Below, in pieces: positions 3,618 to 19,607 of a stretch of 20,000 bases of DNA. The notes below the pieces were generated by a model, which saw only the letters and a list, made by a program, of their open reading frames with translations, was not told where the DNA came from and made no database searches. Position numbers and translations under genes: made by a program. Each line of letters opens with the position of its first letter. Position 1 is the stretch's first letter. Source of the stretch: an uncultured virus (IMG/VR IMGVR_UViG_3300037245_001637) (Duplodnaviria > Heunggongvirae > Uroviricota > Caudoviricetes); the IMG/VR virus record IMGVR_UViG_3300037245_001637; one strand, given 5' to 3'.

Positions 3618-3618
3618 C

Positions 3619-3819: not shown

Positions 3820-3829
3820 CTTATCTCCT

Positions 3830-4192: not shown

Positions 4193-4211
4193 CTACTGTA
4201 TCTTCTCTAGT

Positions 4212-4607: not shown

Positions 4608-4608
4608 T

Positions 4609-4917
4609 TTATTTCTCCTTCTTAACCATATCAAAATACGCTTCTTTAGTCTCAGCACATCTCCTCCGAACTTCTGTCTGGAAATACATATCAGCTAAAA
4701 ACGAATCTTCATATCGATCACAAACACAAACACACTGACCACAATCCATAATGTGTATAACAATTAAATGCTCAGGTTTGCTATCATTACAATCTCCTAC
4801 CCATAGTTTAGGAAATTGATGTTGTTTCTTTATTAAGGTCTTTTTGTATTTGTTCCTTAAATAAGTTGCTTGATCAAATTGGTCTTTTATCTGGTAGTTC
4901 TTTTTATTTCGTTTCAT
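4609..4917 (-). CDS. Hypothetical protein
   Basis: 102 aa, AGGAG RBS. Confidence 0.8.
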   Translation of the reverse strand: MKRNKKNYQIKDQFDQATYLRNKYKKTLIKKQHQFPKLWVGDCNDSKPEHLIVIHIMDCGQCVCVCDRYEDSFLADMYFQTEVRRRCAETKEAYFDMVKKEK

Positions 4918-4927
4918 TTATTTCTCC

Positions 4928-5209
4928 TTAATTAAAATCTGGTTCATAACTCTTAACAACAGCCTTTTCTTTCTTAGTATATTCTACTGTTCCACAGAGA
5001 TTACATTTTCTTGCATATCTTACAACGTTTTTATCATAATAATTGTATATAGGGTGTGGATCAGAACCATGCCCTTCTAAATGAGAGTAAACTGCTTCTT
5101 GCTCTGTTGTATCGTCTCTATATGTTTTGCTTCAAGTATGTTTACACATTCCTATTTTACTTCTTTCATAATCCATTTCTCTTTGTAGTTCTTGCATTCT
5201 CTTTTTCAT
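4928..5209 (-). pseudogene. Zinc-ribbon-like protein gene (CxH...CxxC) interrupted by an in-frame TGA
   Basis: AGGAG RBS. MKKRMQ...GMCKHT-[TGA 5132-5134]-SKTY...RKCNLCGTVEY...DFN-TAA fills the gap between neighbouring genes. Confidence 0.65.
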
Positions 5210-5391
5210 TTATTTCTCCTTATATGTCTTTTATATCCATCTACTATTTCTTTTTCCATATAATTTTTAAGATAAGTTGTAAATGATTCTCTCTCATCAT
5301 TAGGGACACAGAATTGTATATCTAAATCTCCTATAATACAATCATCAAACTCATCGTAAACAATGTCATTTATTATGTCTGCTGTTATCAT
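5206..5391 (-). CDS. Hypothetical protein
   Basis: 61 aa, AAGGAG RBS, ATGA overlap with the downstream gene. Confidence 0.75.
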   Translation of the reverse strand: MITADIINDIVYDEFDDCIIGDLDIQFCVPNDERESFTTYLKNYMEKEIVDGYKRHIRRNK

Positions 5392-5504
5392 CTTAGTACT
5401 CCTTCAAGCCCCATACGACGCTCTTTTTCACTTGGATGAACCCATACACCTTTTCCTATGTAAGTCTCTCTTAAACTGTCTGGGAGTAGTAGAATTGGAT
5501 TCTA

Positions 5505-5834
5505 TTAATACTCCTCTAACTCTTCATCTCTATCTTTAAAATATCCTCTCTCAGGAGTATAACTATATCCACCATATTCCCATAGATTCTCTGAGATCAA
5601 CTCTCCTCCACCAATTAAATTATAATGTTCATCTGAAAGTTGCCCTGCACCATAAGCTAAATCTGTAGCATATAGTCTATTAACAAATCTTCCTTCAGAA
5701 GTTACAAATCCCTGATCATCCCTACCAGTAGCACAGGATCCTTTCTCAGAAGTTTCTCTTACATCCACATGACTCTTACCTATACCAATAGATCCATCTG
5801 TTCTTCTTATTCCTGCATGTGCTATTCTTTCCAT
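5505..5834 (-). CDS. Conserved uncharacterised phage protein (QGFxTxxGRFVxR...AGQ...SExLW type)
   Basis: Motif DQGFVTSEGRFVNR...AYGAGQL...LISENLW, recalled as recurrent in phage hypotheticals. Confidence 0.8.
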   Translation of the reverse strand: MERIAHAGIRRTDGSIGIGKSHVDVRETSEKGSCATGRDDQGFVTSEGRFVNRLYATDLAYGAGQLSDEHYNLIGGGELISENLWEYGGYSYTPERGYFKDRDEELEEY

Positions 5835-5837
5835 AAT

Positions 5838-6065
5838 CTATTTCCAGTCCGTATTGTAATGCTTTATACTATCACAATTACCTGTACTTACCCATGCAAT
5901 AACTTTTTTGTCTAAGGGCATTCCAATACCTTTACACCATGAAGTACCTCCACCAGCACCATAGTAAGCGAACCCTGTTGTTCCATCTTCAAACTTTACC
6001 TTGCAATCATTACAATCATTTGGGACTTCCTCAGTTACATTTACCCAGTTTTCTAAATCTTCCAT
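5838..6065 (-). CDS. DUF551-like small phage protein
   Basis: WVNVTEEVP...W...KVIAW pattern. Confidence 0.65.
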   Translation of the reverse strand: MEDLENWVNVTEEVPNDCNDCKVKFEDGTTGFAYYGAGGGTSWCKGIGMPLDKKVIAWVSTGNCDSIKHYNTDWK

Positions 6066-6093
6066 ATTATTGTTTTCCTCTCTTTATACTTTT

Positions 6094-6122
6094 ATACTAT
6101 AGGAATTGTTCTTACTTGCCAA
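6094..6122 (-). promoter_or_regulatory. Sigma70-type early promoter
   Basis: TTGGCA-17-TAGTAT with ATTCCTA before the -10. Confidence 0.6.
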
Positions 6123-6125
6123 CCC

Positions 6126-6290
6126 TTATTTAATAATACTACCACATTTTCTACAAACACTATGTATATATGTTTTACTATTTTCTACCAATAGTTTTCT
6201 TGTTCTGTAATGTTCTGTAAATAGATTATACTTTTTCATTTTATTATACACTGGTTTGTATTTATGTTTACATGTTATTTCCTTATCCAT
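6126..6290 (-). CDS. Small CxH...CxxC zinc-ribbon protein (below cutoff)
   Basis: MDKEITCKHKY...HSVCRKCGSIIK, GAGAGGA RBS, has its own promoter. Confidence 0.7.
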   Translation of the reverse strand: MDKEITCKHKYKPVYNKMKKYNLFTEHYRTRKLLVENSKTYIHSVCRKCGSIIK

Positions 6291-6309
6291 ATTTTCCTCT
6301 CTTATCTTT

Positions 6310-6339
6310 ATACTATAGGGGATTATTGATCTGTGTCAA
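6310..6339 (-). promoter_or_regulatory. Sigma70-type early promoter
   Basis: TTGACA-16-TATAGT or TTGACA-18-TAGTAT. Confidence 0.65.
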
Positions 6340-6613
6340 GTCCTTCCTCTGATTTCATTTCAGGCCATGGAGGATGTACTTTTAATACTATTTTATTAGA
6401 GTATGTTCTCATATACATTATTTCTTCTGTTCCTTCCTCATAGTTTTCTTGTTTTACAGATTCAATCCACTCTTCAACAAGCCCTAATTTATATTGAGTT
6501 TGTATATAGTAGGTGTATTCTTTAAACTCATCTCGTTCTATGAATGATGTGTCTCCACTTCGATGACAACTAACTAGTAGAATAATTAATATAATTGTTA
6601 GTATTTTCTTCAT
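6323..6613 (-). CDS. Putative lipoprotein (start revised to MKKIL)
   Basis: GGAGG RBS; MKKILTIILIILLVS-C lipobox. Confidence 0.75.
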   Translation of the reverse strand: MKKILTIILIILLVSCHRSGDTSFIERDEFKEYTYYIQTQYKLGLVEEWIESVKQENYEEGTEEIMYMRTYSNKIVLKVHPPWPEMKSEEGLDTDQ

Positions 6614-6614
6614 G

Positions 6615-6944
6615 TTAAATACCCTCCATAAATTCAGAAATCTCATCAAATGTAATTTCTCCATCATCCAACCATGTAATATCCACATCATATGTCTTCT
6701 CAGCAACTAAAGTATTTACAGGTGCTGTCCAGTGATATCCATCTGCTTCCCCGAGATATATAGCATAGTTTCCATAACAGATAACTATTCTCACCTCATC
6801 GGACTCTTCTAAAACAACAGAGTCAAATCCTTGGACAGGAATTGAGATAGCTTGTACTGGTTTAGCATTGTGGGTTAAAGCTTCTTTTATTGTTTCTCTT
6901 ATTTCATCTGTTTCAAAGAATGTTTCTTTATTATTTGTTTTCAT
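6615..6944 (-). CDS. Hypothetical acidic protein
   Basis: 109 aa, AGGAG RBS. Confidence 0.8.
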   Translation of the reverse strand: MKTNNKETFFETDEIRETIKEALTHNAKPVQAISIPVQGFDSVVLEESDEVRIVICYGNYAIYLGEADGYHWTAPVNTLVAEKTYDVDITWLDDGEITFDEISEFMEGI

Positions 6945-6956
6945 TTTATTTCTCCT

Positions 6957-7127
6957 TTACTCTGCTGACCCGATGGCAATAAATGTTATAAACTGCCCAA
7001 ATCCAAATATACCTAACATCATGAAAAAACTAAAACTTATATCAGGTCTCACAATGCTCCCTATAATTAGTGCTAGGTCTACTATCACTGAGGATATAAG
7101 AATACCCCAAATCATTTTATCTGTCAT
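6957..7127 (-). CDS. Small two-TM membrane protein (below cutoff)
   Basis: MTDKMIWGILISSVIVDLALIIGSIVRPDISFSFFMMLGIFGFGQFITFIAIGSAE; ATGA overlap with the upstream gene. Confidence 0.7.
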   Translation of the reverse strand: MTDKMIWGILISSVIVDLALIIGSIVRPDISFSFFMMLGIFGFGQFITFIAIGSAE

Positions 7128-7945
7128 CCTATTTGTTTCTCTCCTATATGCTTCTCATAATGTCTTTCAATAATAAAATTAGCTAAAGGTCTATACCACT
7201 CCCAAGATCCATGAAGCATATCTAGTGGTTTTGACTGTCTTCTCCAACTTTTATATTGTCCTGACTCCTGAGTTTTTTTCTTAACTTGGAATAAGTAGTT
7301 ATCTTTTCTCTCTATTAACTGTGTCATAGTAGGTAATTTATCGGAAAAAGGATACTCTGAAATATCTACTAATACTTCTTGATACTTACCATAAGCCCTA
7401 AAATAATCCTTCAAACAATGTCTCAACATCCGTAGATTAGTTAAATGACTTATCTCTCCAACATAATCCTCTGCTTTACCAAAATGTGTTATATACTCAA
7501 TCATATGTTTAAAAGAATTAAAATCCTTTCTACCTATAGCTAATTTGGGAGTTCTCTTTAAGACTTTTCCATTATTATCTGCTTTATATTTGAACTCTAT
7601 TCCTAATCTCCATTTTAAACCTTTATAGAAAGTAAAGTTCTCATTATTCTTATATATTTCTGTGTCTGTTGAGGAAGCATGAGAATCATAAGCAGGATAA
7701 TCCCCTGAATAACCCCTATAAGGTTTTAACTCTTCTGTATCCCAATTTTTGTAATAAAAATCTCCGTATGCATCCCAGAATCCATTAGCTACTGTATTAG
7801 CCAGACATTTATCATCTGCACATACAAAAGTCTCTCTTAAAGGTCTTCTAAGAGCGTTTGGATCGGACACATGATCTGAAAGTGTTTCGAATTCTTCATA
7901 TTTGCCTTGTACTAGTTCTGTTTGCTCACAAAATCTGCATTTCAT
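7124..7945 (-). CDS. Hypothetical protein with N-terminal Cys motif (CRFC...CADDKC)
   Basis: 273-aa ORF, AGGAG RBS, ATGA coupling. Confidence 0.85.
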   Translation of the reverse strand: MKCRFCEQTELVQGKYEEFETLSDHVSDPNALRRPLRETFVCADDKCLANTVANGFWDAYGDFYYKNWDTEELKPYRGYSGDYPAYDSHASSTDTEIYKNNENFTFYKGLKWRLGIEFKYKADNNGKVLKRTPKLAIGRKDFNSFKHMIEYITHFGKAEDYVGEISHLTNLRMLRHCLKDYFRAYGKYQEVLVDISEYPFSDKLPTMTQLIERKDNYLFQVKKKTQESGQYKSWRRQSKPLDMLHGSWEWYRPLANFIIERHYEKHIGEKQIG

Positions 7946-8217
7946 AGCTTCTCTCCTTTTCCATTATAAAATTTATTGTCTCTTACACAAACACCTAAAA
8001 TAGACAAACCTAGTGTAAACCCATTTGCAAATGTTTGCAGTTCTTTTAACTCTTTTCCTGCTTCCTGTCTCATAAAATAAGATTCCCCACTGTGCCCTAC
8101 TTCCTCATCTGTCAACATCATTTGTTTAATACAACTACTCTGTTCCCATATAATTTCTTTGTATGCCTTTTTCAACTTGGCTAAATGTTTTTGTTTAATA
8201 TTTATTTCTACTTTCAT
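7942..8217 (-). CDS. Hypothetical protein (start revised to MKVEI)
   Basis: GAGAGGG RBS; the track start lies inside the promoter. Confidence 0.75.
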   Translation of the reverse strand: MKVEINIKQKHLAKLKKAYKEIIWEQSSCIKQMMLTDEEVGHSGESYFMRQEAGKELKELQTFANGFTLGLSILGVCVRDNKFYNGKGEKL

Positions 8218-8240
8218 ACTATCCCTCTCTTTATATTTAC

Positions 8241-8269
8241 ATAATATAGGAATTATCATTCATTGTCAA
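8241..8269 (-). promoter_or_regulatory. Sigma70-type early promoter
   Basis: TTGACA-17-TATTAT. Confidence 0.8.
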
Positions 8270-8275
8270 GTATTT

Positions 8276-8599
8276 CTATGAAAAAGTAGTAAAACTTATT
8301 GACACACCTTGTCTCCGTAGTAGCTTACAGAATTCATAATCAGACTTATGTGGATACACTCTCTTTGTTGGAACATAATCACTATTATATTCTATAGATC
8401 TATAAATCCTTTGTTTTGAATGGAAATCTATAGTGTAAGATCTTATCTCTCCATCTTCTAGTTCTGTTATGAATGTATCTCTGGCACATGTGTATCCTGA
8501 TATTAAAATTCTATCCTCTTTATTATTTAAATCATATTCTGTTAACAAATGTGTTTCTCTATCGATATTTTCTATTTCTTTTAGTTCTTCTCTGGTCAT
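8276..8599 (-). CDS. Hypothetical phage protein
   Basis: 107 aa, AGGAG RBS. Confidence 0.8.
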   Translation of the reverse strand: MTREELKEIENIDRETHLLTEYDLNNKEDRILISGYTCARDTFITELEDGEIRSYTIDFHSKQRIYRSIEYNSDYVPTKRVYPHKSDYEFCKLLRRQGVSISFTTFS

Positions 8600-8622
8600 C
8601 TTTATTCTCCTATCTAGTTGTC

Positions 8623-8874
8623 TTAGTAGTTTGTGTTTGTCTCCTTACATATCCATAAGTCTGTCTCTAAAACTTTTACATTGTCTTTAAGCTTACATTT
8701 TTGCTTCTGTAATTTCTTAATCTTACTCTTAAGTTGATTCTTATATTTTCTATCATTTACTTTGTGTTTCTCCAAGTCAAGTATATATTCAAACATCTCT
8801 TTTGAAAGCTTTGCTGAGGGTCTTTCAACTATCTCAAACTGTTTATGTATCTGATCCATGTCTGGTCTTTTCAT
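8623..8874 (-). CDS. Hypothetical basic coiled-coil protein
   Basis: 83 aa, AGGAG RBS. Confidence 0.75.
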   Translation of the reverse strand: MKRPDMDQIHKQFEIVERPSAKLSKEMFEYILDLEKHKVNDRKYKNQLKSKIKKLQKQKCKLKDNVKVLETDLWICKETNTNY

Positions 8875-8885
8875 TTTATTTCTCC

Positions 8886-9191
8886 TTAAAACTTAGTCTT
8901 GATCCAAGCTATTCTATCTCCTGCAAATTTATCATCTAATTTAGTGTCTCCAAAATCATATAACCACCCTAGAAGATCATTAAACTCGTTGTAGTCCTCA
9001 CATTCATTCTCTACTAACTCATTAAACTCCCACACTATGTCATCTCTTATATCAAGGTGTTCTTCATCGAGATTTGTGATTTTATTTAAATCTCTGATAA
9101 TATCTTTACATACCTCTACTAATAGTTTAGGTGTGTCTTGGGCTTCTTCCCATACTCTTGTTAAATCTATTGTATTTTTCCAATTTGCCAT
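8886..9191 (-). CDS. Hypothetical acidic protein
   Basis: 101 aa, first gene after the promoter at 9218-9246. Confidence 0.8.
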   Translation of the reverse strand: MANWKNTIDLTRVWEEAQDTPKLLVEVCKDIIRDLNKITNLDEEHLDIRDDIVWEFNELVENECEDYNEFNDLLGWLYDFGDTKLDDKFAGDRIAWIKTKF

Positions 9192-9217
9192 AATTTGTAT
9201 CCTCTCTTTATATTTAT

Positions 9218-9246
9218 ATCTTACCTTGTATTGTAAGTTGTGTCAA
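9218..9246 (-). promoter_or_regulatory. Sigma70-type early promoter
   Basis: TTGACA-17-TAAGAT. Confidence 0.8.
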
Positions 9247-9253
9247 GTACAAT

Positions 9254-9285
9254 AAATAAAAAAGCCCTCTAATTAAAGAAGGCTT
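9254..9285 (-). terminator. Rho-independent terminator after capsid-like copy 2
   Basis: AAGCCTTCT-TTAATT-AGAGGGCTT followed by TTTTATTT. Confidence 0.75.
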
Positions 9286-9289
9286 CATG

Positions 9290-9953
9290 TTATTTCATTA
9301 TTGTTATGTTAAATGTTTGTATTTTATCTGTTTTTCCTTTCCAATTTAATGGGTCAGATAGTTCCTTATCTGTTGGTCCATCTTCATATTCTGATAGACC
9401 ATCAAAGGAACAACCATCAACAATGATGTTAAGTTTCTTAGTGGTGGTTAAAGTTTGCTCCTCGAATACCTCTCCTTCTGTTATAAAGGGCTCTGATAAA
9501 TCCACATAGTCATTATATAAAATAGCCCCTTCCTTTAGTAAATAAGCAGGGTAAACATTGTATAGATCTGTTTCTTTATTATTACATCTATCATCTACAA
9601 TAACAGGAATTCCTTTGTAAGTTCCTATAGACATGTTACTTCCTTCTTCAATAGGAATAAACTTGTAATCTTTGTGTTTTCTCAGTAAGGTGTTAACTCT
9701 TGAATGAATAATAAGGACTTTGTACTCATCTAGATCTTCATATATAAAATCTTCTACGTATCCTGAATATTCTTCTGTTAATAATGCTCCTATTATCTTT
9801 ATAAACGTGTTTTGAATAGAAGTGTTCCAAACAGCTTCTTGTCTTTGTATAATCCATCTCGTAAGGGGTCAATCCAATTAACAATAGATTCACCACACAC
9901 AGTTTCGAGATGACATAGATATTTATGTAGTAGTCTCATTTTTTAAGTTCCTA
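9290..9953 (-). pseudogene. Disrupted, N-truncated SPP1-gp13-like major capsid protein homologue (copy 2); C-terminal 114-aa ORF 9290-9634 is intact
   Basis: Reconstruction: AGGAG-AATT-[TAG 9951-9953]-ELKK-[TGA 9936-9938]-DYYINIY...LIGLTPYEM-[extra G at 9854/9855]-IIQRQEAVWNTSIQNT...IIHS...GTYKGIPVIVDD...YLLKEGAILYND...PTDKELSDPLNWKGK. Collinear with the protein at 13380-14303. Confidence 0.75.
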
Positions 9954-9962
9954 AATTCTCCT

Positions 9963-10130
9963 TTATAGTCCTAGTATAACATTACAAAAAGTACCCCACA
10001 TACCAACACATATAAAGATTATGATGAAGTTCTTTATAGAGGGTTCTCCTGTGAACACATCAAATACAACACACCCTTTATCTCCTAGATAGATACCTAT
10101 CATTATAGCTCCTAATAATTTTATTAACAT
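9963..10130 (-). CDS. Small membrane protein (below cutoff)
   Basis: MLIKLLGAIMIGIYLG...NFIIIFICVGMWGTFCNVILGL, AGGAG RBS. Confidence 0.7.
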   Translation of the reverse strand: MLIKLLGAIMIGIYLGDKGCVVFDVFTGEPSIKNFIIIFICVGMWGTFCNVILGL

Positions 10131-10140
10131 TTATTCTCCT

Positions 10141-10359
10141 TTAATATGTAAAAAATTGAATAGTGTATGTTTCATTCTCCACTATTTTATCATATGTTCC
10201 ATTATCAGTTTTGTACTTAGGTTTTATTTTCTTCTTCATCTGATCAACCATTTTGTCTAAATCATCTGCATCAAAACAAGCATAAGATTCTATAACCTTT
10301 TTATCATAACCTGTTCCTTTACTTAATTCCACATGTATTGCATTGTTCACTTCTAACAT
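10141..10359 (-). CDS. Hypothetical protein
   Basis: 72 aa, AAGGAG RBS. Confidence 0.75.
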   Translation of the reverse strand: MLEVNNAIHVELSKGTGYDKKVIESYACFDADDLDKMVDQMKKKIKPKYKTDNGTYDKIVENETYTIQFFTY

Positions 10360-10394
10360 TATTTCTCCTTACCTACCCCATTAAGAGGCTGTTA

Positions 10395-10655
10395 TTAAAC
10401 AACTTTCGTTCTTTCGCCACACATACATTTAGAATAACGTCTTGAAGTTTTCACAATTGAACCACAGGTTGTTTTATATTCCTTAATGGTACTATCTGTT
10501 TGTGAAGGTTGTTCTGTCCATTCACAAACAGGGACAGTCCCTTTCCCGTTACAATTACTACAAGATGAATAACTTACGCACCCGAATTGATCTTGATCCC
10601 CAACTTCACCGTTACTACAATATGGACATTCCATTGTTTTTACTTCCTCTTTCAT
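10395..10655 (-). CDS. DnaJ-type (CxxCxGxG) zinc-finger protein
   Basis: CPYCSNG...CSNCNGKG plus further Cys residues. Confidence 0.75.
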   Translation of the reverse strand: MKEEVKTMECPYCSNGEVGDQDQFGCVSYSSCSNCNGKGTVPVCEWTEQPSQTDSTIKEYKTTCGSIVKTSRRYSKCMCGERTKVV

Positions 10656-10656
10656 T

Positions 10657-10986
10657 TTATTTCTCCTTTCTAGTATATTCTGTTAAATTTACATACCCTA
10701 TAGACACTAACATCCGTGATATATCTTCTTGAGAACTATTCTTATCAGTAAGTTCCCCTAGTTTTTGTAATAATATAGTTTCTTCAGACAAAACTTTCCA
10801 TGCATCATCGTAAACTTTTAATCTAGGTATAAGGTCTCCACCAAGAAGTTCCCAATCAATACTAAATTCTCCTCCTGTTCCTCCACTCTCAGGATAATCA
10901 CCAATCATTATTTGAGGAACAAGTCTATCTATACTCTCTGCATACCACATTTTATTCATTATCATAAATCCCATTCTTCTTTCCAT
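10657..10986 (-). CDS. Uncharacterised phage protein
   Basis: 109 aa, AGGAG RBS, GGTGGEFSIDW...PRLKVYDDAW motif. Confidence 0.8.
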   Translation of the reverse strand: MERRMGFMIMNKMWYAESIDRLVPQIMIGDYPESGGTGGEFSIDWELLGGDLIPRLKVYDDAWKVLSEETILLQKLGELTDKNSSQEDISRMLVSIGYVNLTEYTRKEK

Positions 10987-10987
10987 A

Positions 10988-11071
10988 TTATTCTTCTCCT
11001 TCTGGTTTCATACTCTCCCATAACTCTAATCTAACTGCTTGTAGTTCTTTCTCTGTAACAAAGGTGAGCAT
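10988..11071 (-). CDS. Possible 27-aa peptide
   Basis: MLTFVTEKELQAVRLELWESMKPEGEE fills the gap between a TAA and the next gene. Confidence 0.4.
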   Translation of the reverse strand: MLTFVTEKELQAVRLELWESMKPEGEE

Positions 11072-11221
11072 TTAATCATTTTGTTTCTCCTCTTCTGGTT
11101 TGTAATCTACATCAGCAGATCCACACTCTCTATGAATCTGATCTCCATCTATAATATCCACGTCCTCTGGTTCGATGTCTTTGTAACATCCATAACAATG
11201 TAATTGGTCTGTATATTCCAT
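11072..11221 (-). CDS. Small CxxC...HxxC zinc-binding protein (below cutoff)
   Basis: MEYTDQLHCYGCYKDI...IHRECGSADVDY, AAGGA RBS. Confidence 0.7.
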   Translation of the reverse strand: MEYTDQLHCYGCYKDIEPEDVDIIDGDQIHRECGSADVDYKPEEEKQND

Positions 11222-11231
11222 ATCTTTTTCC

Positions 11232-11489
11232 TTATTTATATAAGTTTATAATTTTTTTATTTAACGTTTTGCCTAGCCTTCCTCTTCTATACATTACAAC
11301 GTTATTCTTTGAAGAAACAATTTCAATATCAATGTCATCTAATCTAGTGTGTATTTCTTTGCTAAATGATAGCTTCTCAAATTCTCTCGCTACCTTTAAA
11401 ACCATAGCACTTGCTGTTTTAGTTGGTTCAACAATATACGTCTTACAGTCTGTGTTATCAAATAACCTAATAAAATAATTTTTGTCCAT
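11232..11489 (-). CDS. Hypothetical protein
   Basis: 85 aa, first gene after the promoter at 11517-11545. Confidence 0.8.
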   Translation of the reverse strand: MDKNYFIRLFDNTDCKTYIVEPTKTASAMVLKVAREFEKLSFSKEIHTRLDDIDIEIVSSKNNVVMYRRGRLGKTLNKKIINLYK

Positions 11490-11516
11490 CTTGTTTCTCC
11501 TCTTAATCTAATTACT

Positions 11517-11545
11517 ATACTATAGGAATATTTATTTCTTGTCAA
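11517..11545 (-). promoter_or_regulatory. Sigma70-type early promoter
   Basis: TTGACA-17-TAGTAT. Confidence 0.8.
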
Positions 11546-11547
11546 GC

Positions 11548-11961
11548 CTAATGTATAAATTCCATATATGTCTTACGATAATCTTCTTTCACACTCTCTA
11601 GGTAAAATAAATCGAAGGTGTAGCTGCTCATGTATCCGTCTGTGTATATATTATCTATCATGTAAGGGGTTTCTACTTTCCTTACACCTCCTACTAGTGT
11701 TCCTTTCTCGACTTCTAAAGAAGACACTTGCTCAACCTGATCTTTTAGCATAAGCAGAGCAAATAAAACCTTTTCTCCTTTTATTATTTTATTGTTGGAA
11801 ACGATTATAAGTGGGTTTGGTGAAGAAGATCCTAAGGCTACACATAATCCCTCTAAATATTCTTGCGTTATTTCTTCTTCATATCTCCCAACAGGTAAGA
11901 GAAGTCTCCCCGAAGTTAGTCTAGTTATTATTGTGTCTAATGGTGTTGTTATTTGTTTCAT
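11548..11961 (-). CDS. Degenerate DUF262/ParB-like domain protein (tentative)
   Basis: LDTIITRLTSGRLLLP...LEGLCVALGSSSPNPLIIV...IIKGEKVLFAL follows the DUF262 layout, but QR and DGQQR are replaced. The CDS is solid; the family call is tentative. Confidence 0.5.
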   Translation of the reverse strand: MKQITTPLDTIITRLTSGRLLLPVGRYEEEITQEYLEGLCVALGSSSPNPLIIVSNNKIIKGEKVLFALLMLKDQVEQVSSLEVEKGTLVGGVRKVETPYMIDNIYTDGYMSSYTFDLFYLESVKEDYRKTYMEFIH

Positions 11962-11983
11962 TTTTGCTCCTTCTCCTTTTAAC

Positions 11984-12196
11984 TCACATGTATTCGGTTG
12001 TGATAATTGTGTCTACTTCCTCAAAAGCATCTTTTCTACCTTTCAGAAAATAGTATTGTTTAAGTAATTCCATATATTTACTTCCATCAAGAGCAAGACT
12101 TACTTCACTTAATTCTTGTTGCATTGTCCTCTCTTCTCTTTCTGCTTTATTTATCTTTCTTGACATGTCTCGTAATAGTATTTCTAAATCTGTCAT
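11984..12196 (-). CDS. Hypothetical coiled-coil protein
   Basis: 70 aa, AGGAG RBS. Confidence 0.8.
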   Translation of the reverse strand: MTDLEILLRDMSRKINKAEREERTMQQELSEVSLALDGSKYMELLKQYYFLKGRKDAFEEVDTIITTEYM

Positions 12197-12223
12197 TTTT
12201 GTTTCTCCTCTCTTTATTCTTAT

Positions 12224-12252
12224 ATATTACAGGAATACTTATTCTTTGTCAA
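12224..12252 (-). promoter_or_regulatory. Sigma70-type early promoter
   Basis: TTGACA-17-TAATAT. Confidence 0.8.
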
Positions 12253-12665
12253 GTAATATTTAAAGGAAATGAACTCAATCCTCTATTATTCCATTCTATA
12301 GCATCTGCTTCACAACTAGAACACCATTTACTTTGTTTAGGTTCTAAGACATTACATATAGGGCATAGGAAAAGGTATGTTTTGTTACTTGGTGCTAAGG
12401 TGTAGATTGTGCCTGATGAAGCTTCCCATGTGCCTGTTTCAGTGATTTGTATACGATCTTGCTTCCTATTGTTGTATAATCTTTCATTCTCTTGAATGTT
12501 CCATGCTATATTGTCTTCTTTACAAGCTGTACACTCCCCTATGCATTCTGATGTTTGTTTACATATATCACAGTCGATGTTGAGGCTATATGTGTAATTA
12601 CACCACCAAGGGTTGTAGATTGTTCCTGATGGTCCTATCCATCTGTTTAGTGTTGGTTTTTTCAT
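12249..12665 (-). CDS. Protein with two tandem C4 zinc-finger-like repeats
   Basis: WxxxSGTIY...CxIC...CxxCxxDxIxWN occurs twice. Confidence 0.8.
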   Translation of the reverse strand: MKKPTLNRWIGPSGTIYNPWWCNYTYSLNIDCDICKQTSECIGECTACKEDNIAWNIQENERLYNNRKQDRIQITETGTWEASSGTIYTLAPSNKTYLFLCPICNVLEPKQSKWCSSCEADAIEWNNRGLSSFPLNIT

Positions 12666-12666
12666 A

Positions 12667-13092
12667 CTACTCTTCTACCTCTTCAAATTGTTCTTGTAAA
12701 GTGTTTAGTTCTTTTTGTAATAATGAGGAAAACTTTATTGTATATTGCTCCATATCTGTTTCAGTTAACTGATACTTCTTTTTGATGTCTGTTAGTTGGT
12801 CTAGTACACCACAAATGCTATCAGCCACATCCTCTGTTATATTCTTAACTACCGTTTCTAAGGGTTTTTTATAGTGTCTAGCTCTAAAGCCACTAGGGAG
12901 ATCGTGGAAACCAGTACATCTGATTTGATTACCATGTCCCACTAAAAAGAACACTTCAACAAAGTGTGGGCAGGATGTACAATCAGTAGATCCAATTTTT
13001 ATATCTATATAATGTGGACAGGTAGCAATAAGAAGATCATCTTCTGTCTGCTGTTCATTTCTTCTATTAGTTTTTCGTATAGTGTATCCCAT
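12667..13092 (-). CDS. Hypothetical protein, Cys motif plus C-terminal coiled coil
   Basis: CPH...GSTDCTSCPHF...C; 141 aa. Confidence 0.8.
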   Translation of the reverse strand: MGYTIRKTNRRNEQQTEDDLLIATCPHYIDIKIGSTDCTSCPHFVEVFFLVGHGNQIRCTGFHDLPSGFRARHYKKPLETVVKNITEDVADSICGVLDQLTDIKKKYQLTETDMEQYTIKFSSLLQKELNTLQEQFEEVEE

Positions 13093-13098
13093 AATTTG

Positions 13099-13275
13099 TT
13101 ATTCTCCCTTTTTTGGATAGTAATGTTTATTTAATTTAGTCAATATTTTCTTATATCTTTTGGCTTGCCTTACAAACTCATCATTCTCTTCTTCATCATC
13201 TAAGCAATACCCATCAAATAGGGTATAGCCTGTTTCAAGTGCATCGAGATCGTCTTTTGTTATTTCAATTTTCAT
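13099..13275 (-). CDS. Hypothetical protein (58 aa, below cutoff)
   Basis: MKIEITKDDLDALETGY...HYYPKKGE, GAGGAG RBS, first gene after a promoter. Confidence 0.75.
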   Translation of the reverse strand: MKIEITKDDLDALETGYTLFDGYCLDDEEENDEFVRQAKRYKKILTKLNKHYYPKKGE

Positions 13276-13301
13276 GTTTTACTCCTCTCTTTATAGTTGT
13301 T

Positions 13302-13330
13302 ATCTTATAGGAGTTGAATTGTTTTGTCAA
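13302..13330 (-). promoter_or_regulatory. Sigma70-type early promoter
   Basis: TTGACA-17-TAAGAT. Confidence 0.8.
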
Positions 13331-13341
13331 GTGGATTAAGC

Positions 13342-13370
13342 AAAGAAAAACCCTCTTTTTAGGGAGGGTT
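13342..13370 (-). terminator. Rho-independent terminator after capsid-like copy 1
   Basis: AACCCTC...GAGGGTT followed by TTTCTTT. Confidence 0.7.
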
Positions 13371-13379
13371 AATTATTAT

Positions 13380-14303
13380 TTAAATGGTTACTTCCCAGAC
13401 TTCTATAAGATTACTTTTACCTTTCCAATTAGCTTCATTTGCTAATTCTGCATCAGTTGGTCCGTTTTCGTCATTCTCACCTATAAAGGTGCAATTAGGA
13501 ATTGTTATGTTAATGTTCTTCCCTGTAGATAAGACTTCTGGATGAGTTCCTTTTGTAGTATCTATATAGATTCTTGTATCCTCTACAGATATGCTATCAT
13601 TGTAAATGACAGCTCCTTCTGACAGAATATATACTAAATGTAGTTTCTCTTCATCTCCTTTTCTAATAAAAAAATCATCAACGCACACAGGCATAGATCG
13701 ATAAAAAGGAAAACTTTGATTACTTCCTTCTTTCTCTTCATAAACTATTTCATCTCCCAAAGCCTTGAATAAATAACTATTCATGAATACAAGTTTACCT
13801 AATGCTGGGACAGGTGTTTTAGCTAGTTCAGAAATATTTAATTGTGTTGTTTCTGTATTAGAACCAAATAAACTAGACACAATAGTTTTCTGAACACCTA
13901 CTCCCCACACAGCATTTACTCTTTGTATAAGTGCTTCTTTCGGAGTACGTCCAGCTAAAATTGAGGCTATTTGGTATTCACTAGCTTGGTATATTCTTTT
14001 TGTTGTAATATCCCACTCGTCTTGATCTTTCATAGATACAGCTCCTGATGTAAATAATAACTGGTCTGATACATCTAGATTAACTTGATCTTTTAATTCT
14101 CCCTCGGTAAATAATTCTGCTAGGGGGCTTTTACCATTAGTTCTTTGCTGAAGAATTATAAGTAAGTCTTGTAAGGTATACTCAAAATCATCAAATGCCT
14201 CTAGTGAGTTATTTCCTTCTTTAAAAGATTTTCTGTAATCTCTTATCTCTCTGTTAATTTCCTTGAATACTATTTCAAGTCTTTCTTGTTTTGTTTCTTG
14301 CAT
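13380..14303 (-). CDS. Divergent, internally deleted SPP1-gp13-like (HK97-fold) major capsid protein homologue (copy 1)
   Basis: Motifs ELF, LFTSG, IASILAGRTPKEALIQRVNAVW...QK, MNS, FPFYRSMPVCVDD, YILSEGA and PTDAELANEANW are collinear with SPP1 gp13 as recalled (ELF, FFQSG, LAATLSGSDPMQAIGSRVAAYW...QK, MHS, FPTYMNKRVIVDD, YLFGAGA, PTDEELANGANW). Confidence 0.8.
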   Translation of the reverse strand: MQETKQERLEIVFKEINREIRDYRKSFKEGNNSLEAFDDFEYTLQDLLIILQQRTNGKSPLAELFTEGELKDQVNLDVSDQLLFTSGAVSMKDQDEWDITTKRIYQASEYQIASILAGRTPKEALIQRVNAVWGVGVQKTIVSSLFGSNTETTQLNISELAKTPVPALGKLVFMNSYLFKALGDEIVYEEKEGSNQSFPFYRSMPVCVDDFFIRKGDEEKLHLVYILSEGAVIYNDSISVEDTRIYIDTTKGTHPEVLSTGKNINITIPNCTFIGENDENGPTDAELANEANWKGKSNLIEVWEVTI

Positions 14304-14304
14304 T

Positions 14305-14574
14305 TTAACAACCTTCTATAATGTAATAGTATCCTTTAGAGCAGTAACAATCAGAAACAATATCTAAATGCTCTTCCAGAACATTATATAGAGGAAGGAA
14401 TTTATTCTTGAACTTCTCATTGTCTACCTCAGACAGATATATGCCTTCTCTATTTACCCAATGATCTTCTATCATAGTAATCCATTTTTGGAACTGTTCA
14501 TTTCCTGCTAGTTCCTGTCTTTTCTCTTCATCTCTTGCTTCTCTTAATTTGCAAAGCTCTTCATCTGTTCTCAT
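14305..14574 (-). CDS. Hypothetical protein (start revised to MRTDE)
   Basis: AGGAG RBS before the ATG at 14574; the track start overlaps the promoter -10. Confidence 0.75.
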   Translation of the reverse strand: MRTDEELCKLREARDEEKRQELAGNEQFQKWITMIEDHWVNREGIYLSEVDNEKFKNKFLPLYNVLEEHLDIVSDCYCSKGYYYIIEGC

Positions 14575-14605
14575 TTTATTTCTCCTATTTGTGTTTATTC
14601 TTATC

Positions 14606-14634
14606 ATTATACACTACTTTTAGTTATAAGTCAA
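14606..14634 (-). promoter_or_regulatory. Sigma70-type early promoter driving the capsid-like copy 1 operon
   Basis: TTGACT-17-TATAAT. Confidence 0.8.
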
Positions 14635-15043
14635 GCACTTTACCAACATAATTCTGTAAATTATTACATTTCCTGTACTTAAATGCATTCTTTATTAACT
14701 TTATTATAGGTGCTTCATATAGATCATTAGCTATTTTAGTGAGTTGTTTATCTTTCTTCCTAACTTTCCTGTCTGCTCTGTATTGCTCCCTATACATTGT
14801 AGTTAACTTCTTTCCCACATCCGTTTGTGGTCTGTTGGGTGTAAGTACAGTTGTTACATTATCCTCTCTTATTGTTAGCAGGATGCTTTTATGTAAGTAT
14901 GTTACTACTCTATATTCTGTATTATCTTTATAATCTAGGATAACGAAACTATTTGGGTAGCTTATATGAGTTAAGAATTCCTCTGTGACGTATATGTTAA
15001 AGCGTTCTATTAGCCTATCTTGGGCGTGGGTTGTGAATTTCAT
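14624..15043 (-). CDS. DUF4258/BECR-fold RNase-like protein
   Basis: N-terminal FTTHAQDRLIERF and strand-end VTTVL, followed by a basic tail. Confidence 0.6.
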   Translation of the reverse strand: MKFTTHAQDRLIERFNIYVTEEFLTHISYPNSFVILDYKDNTEYRVVTYLHKSILLTIREDNVTTVLTPNRPQTDVGKKLTTMYREQYRADRKVRKKDKQLTKIANDLYEAPIIKLIKNAFKYRKCNNLQNYVGKVLDL

Positions 15044-15471
15044 TTTACCTTCTTTCTAAACAGTAAAAGAAACTTATATAGTAAACCTTCTTCTTTAGGC
15101 TTAGGTACATTTGTTAATAATTCTATCTGTTTCTGAAGCTCTTGCATATTATTAAGGAACATTCTCTCGTTCATACTATATATATTATAATATGTTTCCT
15201 TTAAATAATATAATTCGTTTTCCATAGAGTAAACAAATGTTACAGGTATAACTGATTCTATTTTGTCTGTTATAGGATTTATAACACAATCAATCTCTGA
15301 TCCTAAATAGGAAACTCTTCTTATCTCTCTATTGTTTGGTGTTAAATTTATTAAAGAATAGTCTCTTATGTGTAAAAGGGACTGAGCTATTTTAGTACAA
15401 TTTAAAGGAGAGCTTCCTATATAAGGGTATCTCTCATCTAATCTTTCTTTTGCGTGTTGTGTCCATTTCAT
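15040..15471 (-). CDS. DUF4258/BECR-fold RNase-like protein (paralogue)
   Basis: N-terminal WTQHAKERLDERY and IDCVINPITDKIESVI. Confidence 0.6.
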   Translation of the reverse strand: MKWTQHAKERLDERYPYIGSSPLNCTKIAQSLLHIRDYSLINLTPNNREIRRVSYLGSEIDCVINPITDKIESVIPVTFVYSMENELYYLKETYYNIYSMNERMFLNNMQELQKQIELLTNVPKPKEEGLLYKFLLLFRKKVK

Positions 15472-16355
15472 ATTGTTTCTCCTAGTGTTAATAAGTCTTC
15501 TATTTCGTGTTGTTTTATTAATTCTGCATCTATGTTGTTTGATTTACTAATGTTATCTATAGCAGGCCAGACACGTAAATTTCTGTAATTCCACCATTTA
15601 TATAGGATGTCTTCATTCACAATGTTGTTCTCTTCAGCTAACACAAGTTGATCCATGTAATAACTAGATGGGATAATATGATCTATATGAAACAGGATGT
15701 TACCTTTAGTGTTCTTATTATAATCTTCCATCGTATATTGTCCTTTGTTTAAGTGCTTTACTAGTAGTTCTTTTGTTGTTCCCACATAAATCATTGTGGA
15801 AGATGGTTTTGTTGTACCGACTTTTTTTAGTTGCATAGTTAGCGAGGAGGATAATACCTGCCTTAACTTATTTTTAGGGTTACTGTTGTATTTTCTACTG
15901 TACGTTGCCCTGTGTTTTTTATTTTGTTTTGCCCACTTTTTGTGTCCTCTTTTACGTGTAAATTGTAGTTTTGTTTTATTTTTTTCTTCATATTCTTTTC
16001 TTTTAATGTGTTCACAGATAAAACAAAAGTTTCTTCCAAAAGGGAATACTTTTAAAGTATGGGGTTTTTCTTGCTTACATCCCCAACAAATTTTATTATC
16101 CTTATTACTAGTCCTATCATCCCCTACTGTATTTCCTGCCATGAGTTTCTGTTTGTTAGTCAGTTTTAGAAAGTTATTGGGGAAGCTAACTACATATTGT
16201 GTATTTGTGTATTTGTCTATAAGTCCTTGCCCAACAATCTCCGCATCTCCCCAGTTATTAGTAGGATGATTTGTTCCTGTAGCATATTTCTTAGAAGTAT
16301 TTTTATCTCTTAATAAAACAACTTCTCCTGAACTTAATGTAAATTCTGTTGGCAT
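15468..16355 (-). CDS. HNH endonuclease with zinc finger
   Basis: CWGC...CFIC; FHIDHIIP...NYRNLR...DNISKSN. Confidence 0.85.
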   Translation of the reverse strand: MPTEFTLSSGEVVLLRDKNTSKKYATGTNHPTNNWGDAEIVGQGLIDKYTNTQYVVSFPNNFLKLTNKQKLMAGNTVGDDRTSNKDNKICWGCKQEKPHTLKVFPFGRNFCFICEHIKRKEYEEKNKTKLQFTRKRGHKKWAKQNKKHRATYSRKYNSNPKNKLRQVLSSSLTMQLKKVGTTKPSSTMIYVGTTKELLVKHLNKGQYTMEDYNKNTKGNILFHIDHIIPSSYYMDQLVLAEENNIVNEDILYKWWNYRNLRVWPAIDNISKSNNIDAELIKQHEIEDLLTLGETI

Positions 16356-16391
16356 ATATCTTTTCCTCTCTTAAATCTTTAATATAATGTA

Positions 16392-16420
16392 ACTATACCC
16401 GATGTGGGGAAGTGTGTCAA
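16392..16420 (-). promoter_or_regulatory. Leftward promoter of the divergent region
   Basis: TTGACA-17-TATAGT. Confidence 0.8.
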
Positions 16421-16906: not shown

Positions 16907-17806
16907 ATGGAAGAGAAGAAGATAGTACCTTTAGATGAGGTGATAGCTTATAGAAAGGAACATAAGTTGTGGTCGGAGGATCGGGATGTGTGTAGGGAGC
17001 GAGAGTGGAACTTTTGGGACTATATGGGAGAGGAAATTGGTGTTGGGTTTTATGGTTGGATGTGGAATTACTATGCAGGAGGACCCGCGGGAAATTTACA
17101 CTATGAGGAGGGTGCAAAAGAGTTTGTATGTATGACATGGAAAGAGAAAGTTATATGGGAACATATAAGAACTAAAAATCCTGATTGTCATGATGTAGAG
17201 GTTAATTATGAAACACTATGTGACTTAATTAATGAGCAAGATGTGACAGAAGAACTATTTAGATTGGAAGCTAAAGGACTTATTATTGTGTATAATCGGA
17301 GTCTTTATGAAGAAACACCTGAAATATTTGCTGTGGATGTAACACACAAAGGATTTGAGAAGGATAATGCAGAATACTCTTGGGAGACGATTATGAAAAA
17401 TATCAAGACTCAGGGTATTAAGGAAGAAAAAGAAAGGATAAGATTAAAAAACAAAGAAGAGAAGCCTAAGAATGGATATATTTATTATATGCACTCCGAT
17501 TTAGGGACAAAAATAGGATTGAGTGTTAATAAAACAAATAGGACAGGACAGTTAAAAACAATAATGCCTTGTGAAGAACTAAGAATAGATGTCTTTTCTG
17601 TTAATAACAGAGTTAAAGCAGAAAAGAGACTGCATAAAGAATTCAAAGATAAAAGATTCAAAGGAGAGTGGTTTCATTTAAAACTAGAGGATTTTTCGAT
17701 AGGGGAACAAATACTTAAAGAGGAATTTGAAGGAAAAAGAGTAGATGAAAACACAGAGAGTTATGTAGAAACTTATAAAAGATTTCCAAATGTACTTGAC
17801 AAATAG
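16907..17806 (+). CDS. Protein with central wHTH-like region and C-terminal T5orf172/MUG113 (GIY-YIG-like) domain
   Basis: GYIYYM...TKIGLS...R...L...AEKRLHKEFKDKRFKGEWFHL. Confidence 0.8.
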   Translation: MEEKKIVPLDEVIAYRKEHKLWSEDRDVCREREWNFWDYMGEEIGVGFYGWMWNYYAGGPAGNLHYEEGAKEFVCMTWKEKVIWEHIRTKNPDCHDVEVNYETLCDLINEQDVTEELFRLEAKGLIIVYNRSLYEETPEIFAVDVTHKGFEKDNAEYSWETIMKNIKTQGIKEEKERIRLKNKEEKPKNGYIYYMHSDLGTKIGLSVNKTNRTGQLKTIMPCEELRIDVFSVNNRVKAEKRLHKEFKDKRFKGEWFHLKLEDFSIGEQILKEEFEGKRVDENTESYVETYKRFPNVLDK

Positions 17807-17847: not shown

Positions 17848-18174
17848 ATGGATAAAGTAGGAAGATTTGATATGACAGTGGCTAGAAGAATGGGTGTATC
17901 CTGTGGTATTATTTTACTAGAGTTACAAAGGGATATGGATTTTGTAAAGTTAGGCTTAGGGGGACAGATTGTAGAGGGTTGTCCTTGGATACTCTCCTCG
18001 GCAAAGGTCTTGGAGCAAAAACACCCTTACTTAACAAAAGATAAAATAAAAACGACATTAAAGAAACTAAAGGAAAATAATATGATTAAAACAAGACAAG
18101 ATATTAATGAACATATAGGGAACAGGGCTAATTGGACTACAGTTAACAAGGAAGAAGAATGGAAGAACAATTAA
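17848..18174 (+). CDS. Stand-alone wHTH protein, paralogous to the N-domain of the downstream initiator
   Basis: RFDMTVARRMG...W...HPYLT...KKL...RQDIN...NRANWTT aligns with KFNVTVAMEVG...W...MPYFT...QKL...RLDLN...DRTAWYT. Confidence 0.75.
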   Translation: MDKVGRFDMTVARRMGVSCGIILLELQRDMDFVKLGLGGQIVEGCPWILSSAKVLEQKHPYLTKDKIKTTLKKLKENNMIKTRQDINEHIGNRANWTTVNKEEEWKNN

Positions 18175-19607
18175 AGAATATAAATAAAACACAAGAGCAT
18201 AAGTTTAACGTAACAGTAGCTATGGAAGTAGGCCTCAATGCAGCTACTTTATTTTCTAGGATAAGTCACTGGGTAACTGATAATGAAGCAAATGAAAAAA
18301 ATAAAAAAGAGGGCAAGTATTGGACATATGACTCTAGGAAATCTATTATTGAACGTATGCCTTATTTTACAATGGATTCATTAAAAAGAGCAACGCAGAA
18401 ATTAGTAGATGCAGAATTTATAGAGGTTAGACTGGATTTAAATAGAAACTCATGGGATAGGACAGCTTGGTATACAATAGGTATTAGAGGATTTGATCCT
18501 AAAGTAAAAATCAAAAAACCCTCAGGCAAAAACCCTACCACCCTGAATGGGAATATCACTAATGATTATAACACTTATAAAGACACACATATAGACTTAG
18601 ATTTATCTAAAGATAAATTAGGAGATGAAGGATCTCCTAAAGATAATTTAATAGGAATTACTTCTAATGATAATTTAAATAGTAGTACTCCTATAGAAAA
18701 AGAAAGGGTAATTCCTATAGATTCCTATAATAAATTTAAGGTTTGGGTTAAGACATGGAGTGATAAAGTAGGCACCACAAGTCACACAGTCAAATCCCAA
18801 GAGCAAACACAACAAAAGAATGTATGGAGAATGTTCCTATACACCCAAGAAGCCTTTAAAGGCTTTCTCTCCTTCTATGATAACTACATAGAGGATTTAG
18901 ATGAGGGGTGGATGAAGCGAAATGCAATCACAAGAGAAAATATTATTGAAGCATCTAAGAAAAATACATTAAAAACCCTCTTAACTGATTATACTGCACA
19001 ACTAATTAAAGGACAAACAGTTAAAGATAACAATACTCACCTAGTAAATAAGTTTGATGAGTTCTTCTTAACTGAAAAAGTTGCTCCTGCTAATGAAAAA
19101 GGCTTTGTTAAGAAAAGTCTAATGTTACAGTGGTTATGTAGATCTATAAGATTAGCTGATCAGAAGGAAAACAAAAAAGAACTCCCAATACAAAGAAAAC
19201 ACGAAACACACAAAAGTATGTACCCAATGATAGACAAACTATTTGGAGTAAATAGAAAGAAACTAGATAAAACAACAGTAGACTTACAGAATCAATGTAT
19301 CAGATTAGCAGATGCTTTAATAGATGAGATCATTCTTAAAAAGCTTACATTAAAGGAGAAGCGTAAAACAGATAAATCAATACCTAAACTACCATCCTAC
19401 CAGATAAATAGTTTAGTCAATGATTTTAATGCCTATCACCCCACTACAGAGATATATTTAAAGAACTGGCAGTTACCTAGAACATTTATGCCTGGACGTA
19501 AGAGTTGGAATACATTTGTAGACTACCTAGCAAATAAACCAGATAATAAGCATGAAGTAAAACTATTTAATATTTACAAGCATGATGTGATTGAATACCA
19601 AGGCTAA
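18159..19607 (+). CDS. Putative phage replication initiator (N-terminal wHTH)
   Basis: HKFNVTVAMEVGLNAATLF..I.HWV..NEAN....EGKYWTY.S......MPY...DRTAWY is characteristic of phage replication-initiation wHTH domains, followed by a low-complexity linker. Confidence 0.75.
   Translation: MEEQLKNINKTQEHKFNVTVAMEVGLNAATLFSRISHWVTDNEANEKNKKEGKYWTYDSRKSIIERMPYFTMDSLKRATQKLVDAEFIEVRLDLNRNSWDRTAWYTIGIRGFDPKVKIKKPSGKNPTTLNGNITNDYNTYKDTHIDLDLSKDKLGDEGSPKDNLIGITSNDNLNSSTPIEKERVIPIDSYNKFKVWVKTWSDKVGTTSHTVKSQEQTQQKNVWRMFLYTQEAFKGFLSFYDNYIEDLDEGWMKRNAITRENIIEASKKNTLKTLLTDYTAQLIKGQTVKDNNTHLVNKFDEFFLTEKVAPANEKGFVKKSLMLQWLCRSIRLADQKENKKELPIQRKHETHKSMYPMIDKLFGVNRKKLDKTTVDLQNQCIRLADALIDEIILKKLTLKEKRKTDKSIPKLPSYQINSLVNDFNAYHPTTEIYLKNWQLPRTFMPGRKSWNTFVDYLANKPDNKHEVKLFNIYKHDVIEYQG
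18514..18730. repeat. Origin-like direct and inverted repeats inside the initiator gene
   Basis: AAAAACCCT x2 (18514, 18528); CTAA(A/T)GATAA x3 (18607, 18637, 18664); inverted repeats ATTTATCT/AGATAAAT and TTAGGAGAT/ATCTCCTAA; A(T/C)TCCTAT x4. Confidence 0.5.

Follow-up and report, generated by a model that had tools for sequence, protein, structure and literature searches.

Gene and domain layout of the locus

The 20,000-nucleotide stretch of the uncultured virus IMGVR_UViG_3300037245_001637 (Caudoviricetes), called the window below, carries on its minus strand an open reading frame (ORF) at 13380..14303 that starts with ATG and encodes a protein of 307 amino acids (aa), designated P0001. 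The plus strand is stop-ridden over the same interval. Judged from its sequence, P0001 is a derived, shrunken homologue of the major capsid protein (MCP) of the SPP1 gp13 lineage. It has no E-loop, and it is referred to here as mini-MCP, together with its relatives of the same kind. The gene and the parts of its product are as follows:

13380..14303, minus strand: mini-MCP gene, 307 aa, HK97-fold protein of the SPP1 gp13 type without E-loop (ORF; PDB, PHROG, AlphaFold2 (AF2), Foldseek and VIA capsid matches)
14139..14303, minus strand: residues 1-55, extra N-terminal helical hairpin, in this family member only
14043..14138, minus strand: residues 56-87, N-arm equivalent ending in LLFTSG (alignment to gp13 residues ~5-33)
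13977..14042, minus strand: residues 88-109, short hairpin stub at the place of the E-loop (alignment and model)
13383..13976, minus strand: residues 110-307, spine helix, P-domain and reduced A-domain (A-loop present, one helix missing)

The motifs FTSG and YQIASILAG are at residues 84-87 and 110-118, respectively. The protein was found on two contigs in the protein collection, the longest of them 75,288 bp.

Capsid homology and predicted fold

When P0001 was compared with all PDB chains by phmmer, only the SPP1 capsid protein was matched (6r3a and 4an5; E 4.2e-5, residues 107-294 of the query against 95-304 of the chain). Among PHROGs, phrog_247 'major head protein' was matched with E 2.2e-10, over residues 171-295 only, and phrog_15288 was the second match (E 1.7e-7). 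No Pfam family was above threshold; the best one was unrelated (E 0.059), and PF08967 was not matched. A tblastn search of 50,697 phage records matched six, all of them Bacillus phages, at coat or major head/capsid genes with 25-28% identity, and P0001 matched SPP1 with E 4e-4.

The AF2 model, computed from a nine-row alignment, has a mean predicted local distance difference test score (pLDDT) of 83.6 and a predicted template modelling score (pTM) of 0.73. With this model, Foldseek returned 67 PDB matches at E<=1e-3, and the best 35 of the 67 are all phage capsid-shell or encapsulin-shell proteins; SPP1 6r3a_A was matched with E 1.5e-8. The structure search of BFVD gave 152 matches at E<=1e-3. 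In 50 of the 152, the named proteins are capsid or vertex proteins, except for three 'uncharacterized' and one 'prohead protease'. The ESM Atlas model of P0001 was poor (pLDDT 0.33) and its matches were uninformative. The spine helix, P-domain sheet and A-domain of the HK97 fold are all present in P0001. The sequence-only reading of the window had proposed a capsid-protein homologue of the SPP1 gp13 type, and the PDB, PHROGs and structure matches bear this out.

Absence of the E-loop and of one A-domain helix

Tailed phages, herpesviruses and encapsulins all build their shells from the HK97 fold, in which the E-loop counts among the defining functional elements. P0001 and its relatives were aligned with seven canonical proteins, namely SPP1 gp13, Javan117, BL3, Siara, BA3, P0006 and P0007. 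The domain limits of gp13 were taken from its structural description (PMC6813328), where the N-arm is given as Ala2-Ala28, helix alpha1 as Asp39-Ala45, the E-loop as Pro57-Gln84 and the A-loop as Asp194-Arg207. Statements on the interfaces of P0001 come from alignment to this published description.

In the E-loop columns (gp13 57-84), all six full-length mini proteins have no residue, while the seven canonical proteins have 28-31, SPP1 gp13 itself 28. The distance between the equivalents of Gly33 and Ala102 is 24-27 residues in six of six full-length mini proteins and 68-71 in seven of seven canonical ones. From FTSG to YQIASILAG, exactly 22 residues were counted in P0001, against an equivalent span of about 65 in gp13 (gene at 313-1287 of the SPP1 locus L001). 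Where the E-loop would be, the model has a strand of three residues (89-91), a turn of seven and a second strand (99-108), and after these the spine helix (121-148). A second deletion was found in the A-domain helix columns (gp13 156-177), where the mini proteins have four residues (P0009 twelve) and the canonical ones 20-22. The gp13 protein is 324 aa long, compared with 225-265 aa for the mini-MCPs when the extension is left out.

The rest of the HK97 core is kept, that is, the N-arm, spine helix, P-domain, A-domain sheet and A-loop. The A-loop columns (gp13 194-207) hold 12-15 residues in the mini proteins (14 in P0001) and 13-14 in the canonical ones, and the P-loop region is also present in the alignment. 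The N-arm of P0001 aligns with that of gp13, including E-L-F (gp13 Glu13-Phe15). In SPP1, as described in PMC6813328, the scaffolding protein binds gp13 at its N-terminal segment (helix Phe15-Leu26) and where the spine helix ends.

From the letters alone it had been claimed that the E-loop is missing, that about 22 residues stand where gp13 has roughly 65-70, and that a helical N-terminal extension of about 55 aa is added. The alignment and the structure model confirmed all three. The extension of 55 residues is predicted by AF2 as two helices (residues 5-28 and 34-55) and is absent from all four other mini clusters. A limited full-text phrase search for absence of an E-loop turned up no capsid paper, and shell-forming HK97-fold proteins are not known to lack one.

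The mini-MCP family

An exhaustive phmmer search of 1.84 billion representative proteins gave nine proteins with E<=1e-3, the query included. Four of them are other mini clusters: P0002 (248 aa, E 4e-33), P0003 (224 aa, E 1e-30), P0004 (265 aa, E 5.5e-21) and P0009 (228 aa, E 3.6e-4). P0005 is the window's own second copy, described below, and P0006 (335 aa) and P0007 (297 aa) are full-length capsid proteins. The repeat protein P0008 was taken as a spurious match. The four other mini clusters are from metagenomes only, with one or two members each on contigs of 4-13 kb and with uninformative names. They are 25-35% identical to P0001, their frames are open and both deletions are present in them. 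P0003 is probably cut off, as its end falls inside the GPTD motif.

In a maximum-likelihood tree (14 rows, 253 columns), all seven mini rows stand together on one side of a branch with support 100/100. P0001 was paired with P0003 (95/93) and the second copy of the window with P0002/P0010 (86/88), so that the two copies belong to different sublineages. The nearest canonical protein is P0006; the placement of P0009 is unsure because of its long branch. The mini-MCPs are thus a rare, old and conserved family that is known from metagenomes only. As the two deletions are common to four other open clusters at 25-35% identity, long purifying selection is required.

No mini form was found in isolated phages, where tblastn with P0002 and P0004 matched 24 and 10 records, respectively, all with full-length genes; 21 of the 24 rows for P0002 and all 10 for P0004 carry a capsid, coat or head annotation. 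Single-protein scans of viral contigs with P0001, P0002, P0004 and P0009, scans of metagenome contigs with P0001 and P0010, and a scan of genome contigs with P0001 gave no match. Word-based homologue searches returned the query alone, or the query and P0009 when a profile was used. The degenerate DNA motif for P-x-D-x-[ED]-L-x4-N-W-[KE]-G was met at one locus of the viral contigs, an unrelated ATPase-like ORF, and was discarded. In three phages with P0006-type capsid proteins (L002-L004), the family profile matched one full-length capsid gene each and no mini form, and two window proteins searched there had no match. One of these, L004 (IMGVR_UViG_3300037245_001320, 154 kb), has its P0006-type capsid gene in an ordinary head module at 5262-14136.

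Second copy and possible third relic

The family is represented in the window more than once. The further features are:

9290..9862, minus strand: second mini-MCP paralogue, 5'-truncated, 190 open codons, with an ATG ORF at 9290-9634 of 114 aa
9218..9286, minus strand: terminator-like hairpin (9286-9261) and promoter-like site TTGACA-17-TAAGAT (9246-9218) after the second copy
9137..9196, minus strand: start of the next gene (MANWKNTIDLTRVWEE), resembling the mini-MCP end, possible third relic (DNA local score)

The ORF at 9290..9634 is 38% identical to residues 201-307 of P0001 (E 1e-20), and the copy matches phrog_247 with E 1.5e-13. Homology continues in frame upstream of the ATG as far as 9853, with 43% identity to residues 70-247 of P0002 (9853-9296); the second copy is therefore nearer to this metagenomic protein than to P0001 (32-38%). 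It has no N-arm and no stub, and its spine helix lacks the first part. The family profile matched positions 69-252 only, and the copy is regarded as 5'-truncated because positions 1-68 were matched in none of the three minus-strand frames. A frameshifted N-terminal part, suspected by eye, was ruled out by the same result. There is no ATG, GTG or TTG in the open stretch before 9634, and a purine-rich GAAGGAAG lies just ahead of that ATG.

Such a truncated copy, with three stop codons just upstream that end its open stretch, is what would be expected if the mini-MCPs were functionless relics of a duplicated capsid gene that is being lost, and the possible third scrap points the same way. This explanation is nevertheless highly improbable. 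The frame of P0001 is intact over 307 codons, its two deletions recur in the four other open clusters, and the structure models are confident. Even in the second copy, 78 codons ahead of the ATG are open, which would be expected from base composition with a probability of about 9e-4; therefore, this copy was truncated recently or its open stretch is still being translated somehow.

The gene after the second copy (8886-9191, 101 aa, beginning at MANWKNTIDLTRVWEE) resembles in its first 16 codons the last 18 of mini-MCP at the DNA level. The local score is 37, compared with 17.8 +/- 3.1 for shuffled sequences, and it was reached by none of 2000 shuffles; the scrap is only a hint because tblastn at window level gave E 0.26. 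It may have been left there by recombination.

Transcription unit and expression signals

The mini-MCP gene is the second of two genes, with these signals around it:

14606..14634, minus strand: sigma70-type promoter-like site TTGACT-17-TATAAT, 11 of 12 matches
14305..14574, minus strand: upstream ORF of the same transcription unit, 89 aa (100 aa from ATG 14607), no known family, TAGGAGA before ATG 14574
13349..13370, minus strand: terminator-like hairpin with T-run, ten bases after the mini-MCP stop
13302..13330, minus strand: next promoter-like site TTGACA-17-TAAGAT, followed by the ribosome-binding site (RBS) AAAGAGAGGA of the next gene (13283-13292)

The stop of the 89-aa ORF is one base ahead of the ATG of mini-MCP, and the two genes are predicted to be co-transcribed and translationally coupled. 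The sequence-only reading, in which mini-MCP is the last gene of a two-gene unit under a near-consensus promoter, thus holds. The layout 3' of the second copy is the same, with a terminator, TTGACA-17-TAAGAT and then AAAGAGAGGA; this promoter-like pattern occurs twice in the window, against 0.25 occurrences expected.

Strong promoter-like sites (at least 10 of 12 matches) on the minus strand are positioned 22-44 nt before an ORF start in 9 of 14 cases, where 7% is expected (p 7e-8); two of the ORF starts (14574 and 8217) were chosen after inspection of the RBS, and the count without them is 7 of 14. Their position before ORF starts supports transcription with the primary sigma factor of the host, which in lytic phages is usually a mark of early or middle genes. 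The AAAGAGAGGA-type RBS motif was matched 16 times in the window, compared with 4.3 expected. These signals suggest an accessory region with many promoters and a host that uses Shine-Dalgarno pairing. Strong sigma70-like sites 22-44 nt before ORF starts run through the minus strand from 2960 to 16420.

The 89-aa ORF had no match in Pfam, PHROGs, NCBIfam or PADLOC, and it retrieved itself alone in a word search of 5.8 billion proteins. A scaffold remnant in this ORF or in the N-terminal extension of P0001 was considered and dropped, as neither has significant similarity to scaffolds.

The predicted coupling with a protein of no known family, and an added helical hairpin that could be a new interaction module, would suit a use of the HK97 fold apart from both capsids and sensors, for example as a small oligomeric platform or a chaperone. 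There is a parallel in the Family 4 A-domain encapsulins of archaea (PF08967), which like mini-MCP are natural truncations of the HK97 fold kept in genomes, and for which non-shell roles are proposed in PMC8346489. They are cellular proteins of about 100 aa that consist of the A-domain only and are encoded beside enzymes (PMC8346489). The 307-aa mini-MCP has far more than this, namely a P-domain and also the N-arm and spine helix, which are known to serve in capsid and scaffold contacts, and it has no match to PF08967 or any other Pfam family; only the 114-aa ORF of the second copy is near the size of a Family 4 encapsulin. A use of this kind is unlikely.

Genomic neighbourhood

Pfam and PHROGs families of portal, scaffold, protease, terminase and tail proteins were matched by none of the 42 ORFs of the window, in line with the earlier statement that the window has no recognisable gene for a portal, scaffold, terminase or tail protein. 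The gap without a head-gene match extends for 13 kb on one side of mini-MCP and 6 kb on the other. Small minus-strand ORFs occupy the window from about 16355 to its left end, and a divergent plus-strand block starts at 16578 with genes for a KilA-N protein, a T5orf172/MUG113 protein and two replication-initiator-like proteins (phrog_11233). The G+C content is about 32%. Its gene content suggests that the window is the part of an uncultured tailed phage genome that carries accessory and replication genes. Among sequencing runs, the stretch was found in a single DNA run, from a marine sediment metagenome that may be its source.

Canonical relatives are arranged differently. In four of five named phages, the capsid gene follows a gene with scaffold annotation, immediately or, in SPP1, after one small gene in between, and in the fifth, BA3, the gene upstream is 'hypothetical'. 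In three IMG/VR relatives with P0006, the size and order of the genes give a portal-sized ORF, a 355-aa ORF, a 260-aa ORF in the scaffold position and the MCP. Unlike these, and unlike the gp13 gene with its scaffold and portal neighbours, mini-MCP is not in a head-assembly module after a scaffold gene.

Mini-MCP could instead be a genuine virion component encoded off the head module, either a specialised vertex or minor shell subunit that complements a canonical capsid protein, in the way that gp24 of T4 is said to work with gp23, or the sole capsid protein, with other contacts replacing those of the E-loop. T4 gp24 (PDB 1yue) is reportedly the product of a late structural gene adjoining gene 23 and has an E-loop, whereas the neighbours of mini-MCP are small unknown genes and the promoter ahead of it is of the host type; the rank of gp24 among the structure matches may reflect the shared fold alone. 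The distances of 13 kb and 6 kb without a portal, scaffold, protease or terminase match also speak against a virion role, as do the duplication of the gene with one copy truncated, the host-type promoter and own terminator that flank it, and the phrase search in which absence of an E-loop led to no capsid paper. This explanation is unlikely, though not far-fetched.

The host-type promoter and the accessory-gene context, together with the fast divergence and duplication of the family, would also fit a role as immune decoy or sponge, in which mini-MCP, produced ahead of the true capsid protein, would occupy capsid sensors without activating them. CapRel and Lit are host defences that sense capsid proteins. 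Capsid sensing is presented as established for type I Thoeris in a recent preprint (doi 10.64898/2026.06.04.730250), and DSAD1, which occupies DSR2, a sensor of a virion protein, is a precedent for a decoy (PMC11087589). An early capsid look-alike could, however, set off a sensor just as easily as blunt it. PADLOC had no match for mini-MCP, and the only defence-related matches were two weak ones of neighbours (AbiO, E 6e-4; PDC-S57, E 2e-3). No phage-encoded capsid decoy turned up in a limited literature search, in which 'decoy' meant other things. A decoy is an improbable function.

Proposed function

The reading preferred here, which may well prove wrong, is that mini-MCP is a capsid-protein mimic, unable to build a shell and binding capsid partners. 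It would keep the docking surfaces of a capsid protein (N-arm, spine-helix end, A-loop and the capsomer-forming surfaces) and with them would bind the partners of a full-length SPP1-type capsid protein, be it neighbouring subunits, the scaffolding protein or a host sensor. Since it would make neither the E-loop clasp over a neighbour nor the contacts at the three-fold axis, it would cap, weaken or misdirect assembly rather than extend the lattice. The likeliest target would be capsid assembly by some other element that shares the cell, for example a rival phage, a prophage or a satellite; modulation of the phage's own head would be the second possibility. Mini-MCP is probably not a shell subunit of its own phage, and its features suggest that the shell fold now serves some purpose other than construction of that phage's head. 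The sequence-only reading had suggested that such a protein could titrate capsid sensors, block satellites or poison the heads of rival phages. Its premises, namely the HK97 fold, the missing E-loop, the added helical N-terminus and the location away from head genes, are supported, and two points that it did not contain, the small old family with the shared deletions and the truncated second copy, lend it further weight; the functions themselves are candidates.

Several points weigh against the capsid mimic. It assumes a canonical capsid gene elsewhere in this phage, and should that gene encode an SPP1-type protein, the phage would be poisoning its own assembly. The retained A-loop, N-arm and core motifs are equally expected of an odd virion subunit. 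The location outside a head module is known for the window locus among the mini-MCPs. An early timing of mini-MCP would follow from consensus promoter matches only, and promoter-like sites overall are not above chance in the window (29, compared with 35.8 in the shuffled expectation). The RBS of mini-MCP itself, GAAGGT, is weaker than the AAAGAGAGGA of its neighbours.

The nearest described logic is that of Ccm of the satellite SaPIbov5, a capsid-protein homologue that enters the procapsid of another element and changes the outcome: according to PMC8569155 (PDB 7rwz), it takes penton positions and redirects phi12 capsids. Ccm is described there with the full HK97 fold, E-loop included, and as built into procapsids (PMC8569155), whereas mini-MCP has no E-loop. 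Ccm is satellite-borne and mini-MCP phage-borne, and there is no sequence relationship between them beyond the shared fold. A limited literature search for capsid-protein homologues with interference found only the work on Ccm and one unrelated phage-plasmid study.

Should mini-MCP prove to be a capsid mimic, a counterpart of the satellite-encoded Ccm would for the first time be known from a phage, and 'structural-protein mimicry' would join the weapons of phages against rivals, satellites and host sensors. That the mini-MCPs as a whole form an undescribed accessory class of phages, E-loop-stripped capsid mimics that are transcribed off the head module from host-type promoters and either poison SPP1-type assembly of competitors and satellites or serve as silent sensor decoys, with a duplication and turnover that reflect an arms race, is a more speculative and rather doubtful extension. 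A conserved family without E-loop outside the head genes would show that the HK97 fold has been reused for a purpose other than a closed shell. It would also offer a natural minimal HK97 core of about 225-250 aa in which capsomer-forming contacts could be separated from lattice-forming ones.

Other genes of the window

NCBIfam had no match for mini-MCP or for 17 other ORFs of the window. A megablast search for related phages with 5.5 kb gave no match, and the larger window proteins had remote matches or none.

The 295-aa ORF at 15468-16355 (minus strand) matches the annotated endonuclease VII of Azospirillum phage Cd (E 2e-7), and the ORF at the left edge (1-399, minus strand) matched endonuclease VII PHROGs. 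These two endonuclease-like genes and the gene of the T5orf172 protein (16907-17806) suggest mobile nuclease genes around the region.

Upstream of the 89-aa ORF, two minus-strand ORFs at 14624-15043 and 15040-15471 (139 and 143 aa, respectively) are weak paralogues, with 36% identity over 61 aa (E 1e-3). Both begin with MK[FW]T.HA..RL.ER and belong to no family; the AbiO match of PADLOC is the only, weak, one found for them. On the plus strand, the overlapping genes at 17848-18174 and 18159-19607 match the N-terminal part of phrog_11233 and are mutual paralogues (E 1e-8). A tRNA-Met (CAT) gene lies at 736-809 on the minus strand, amid small ORFs.

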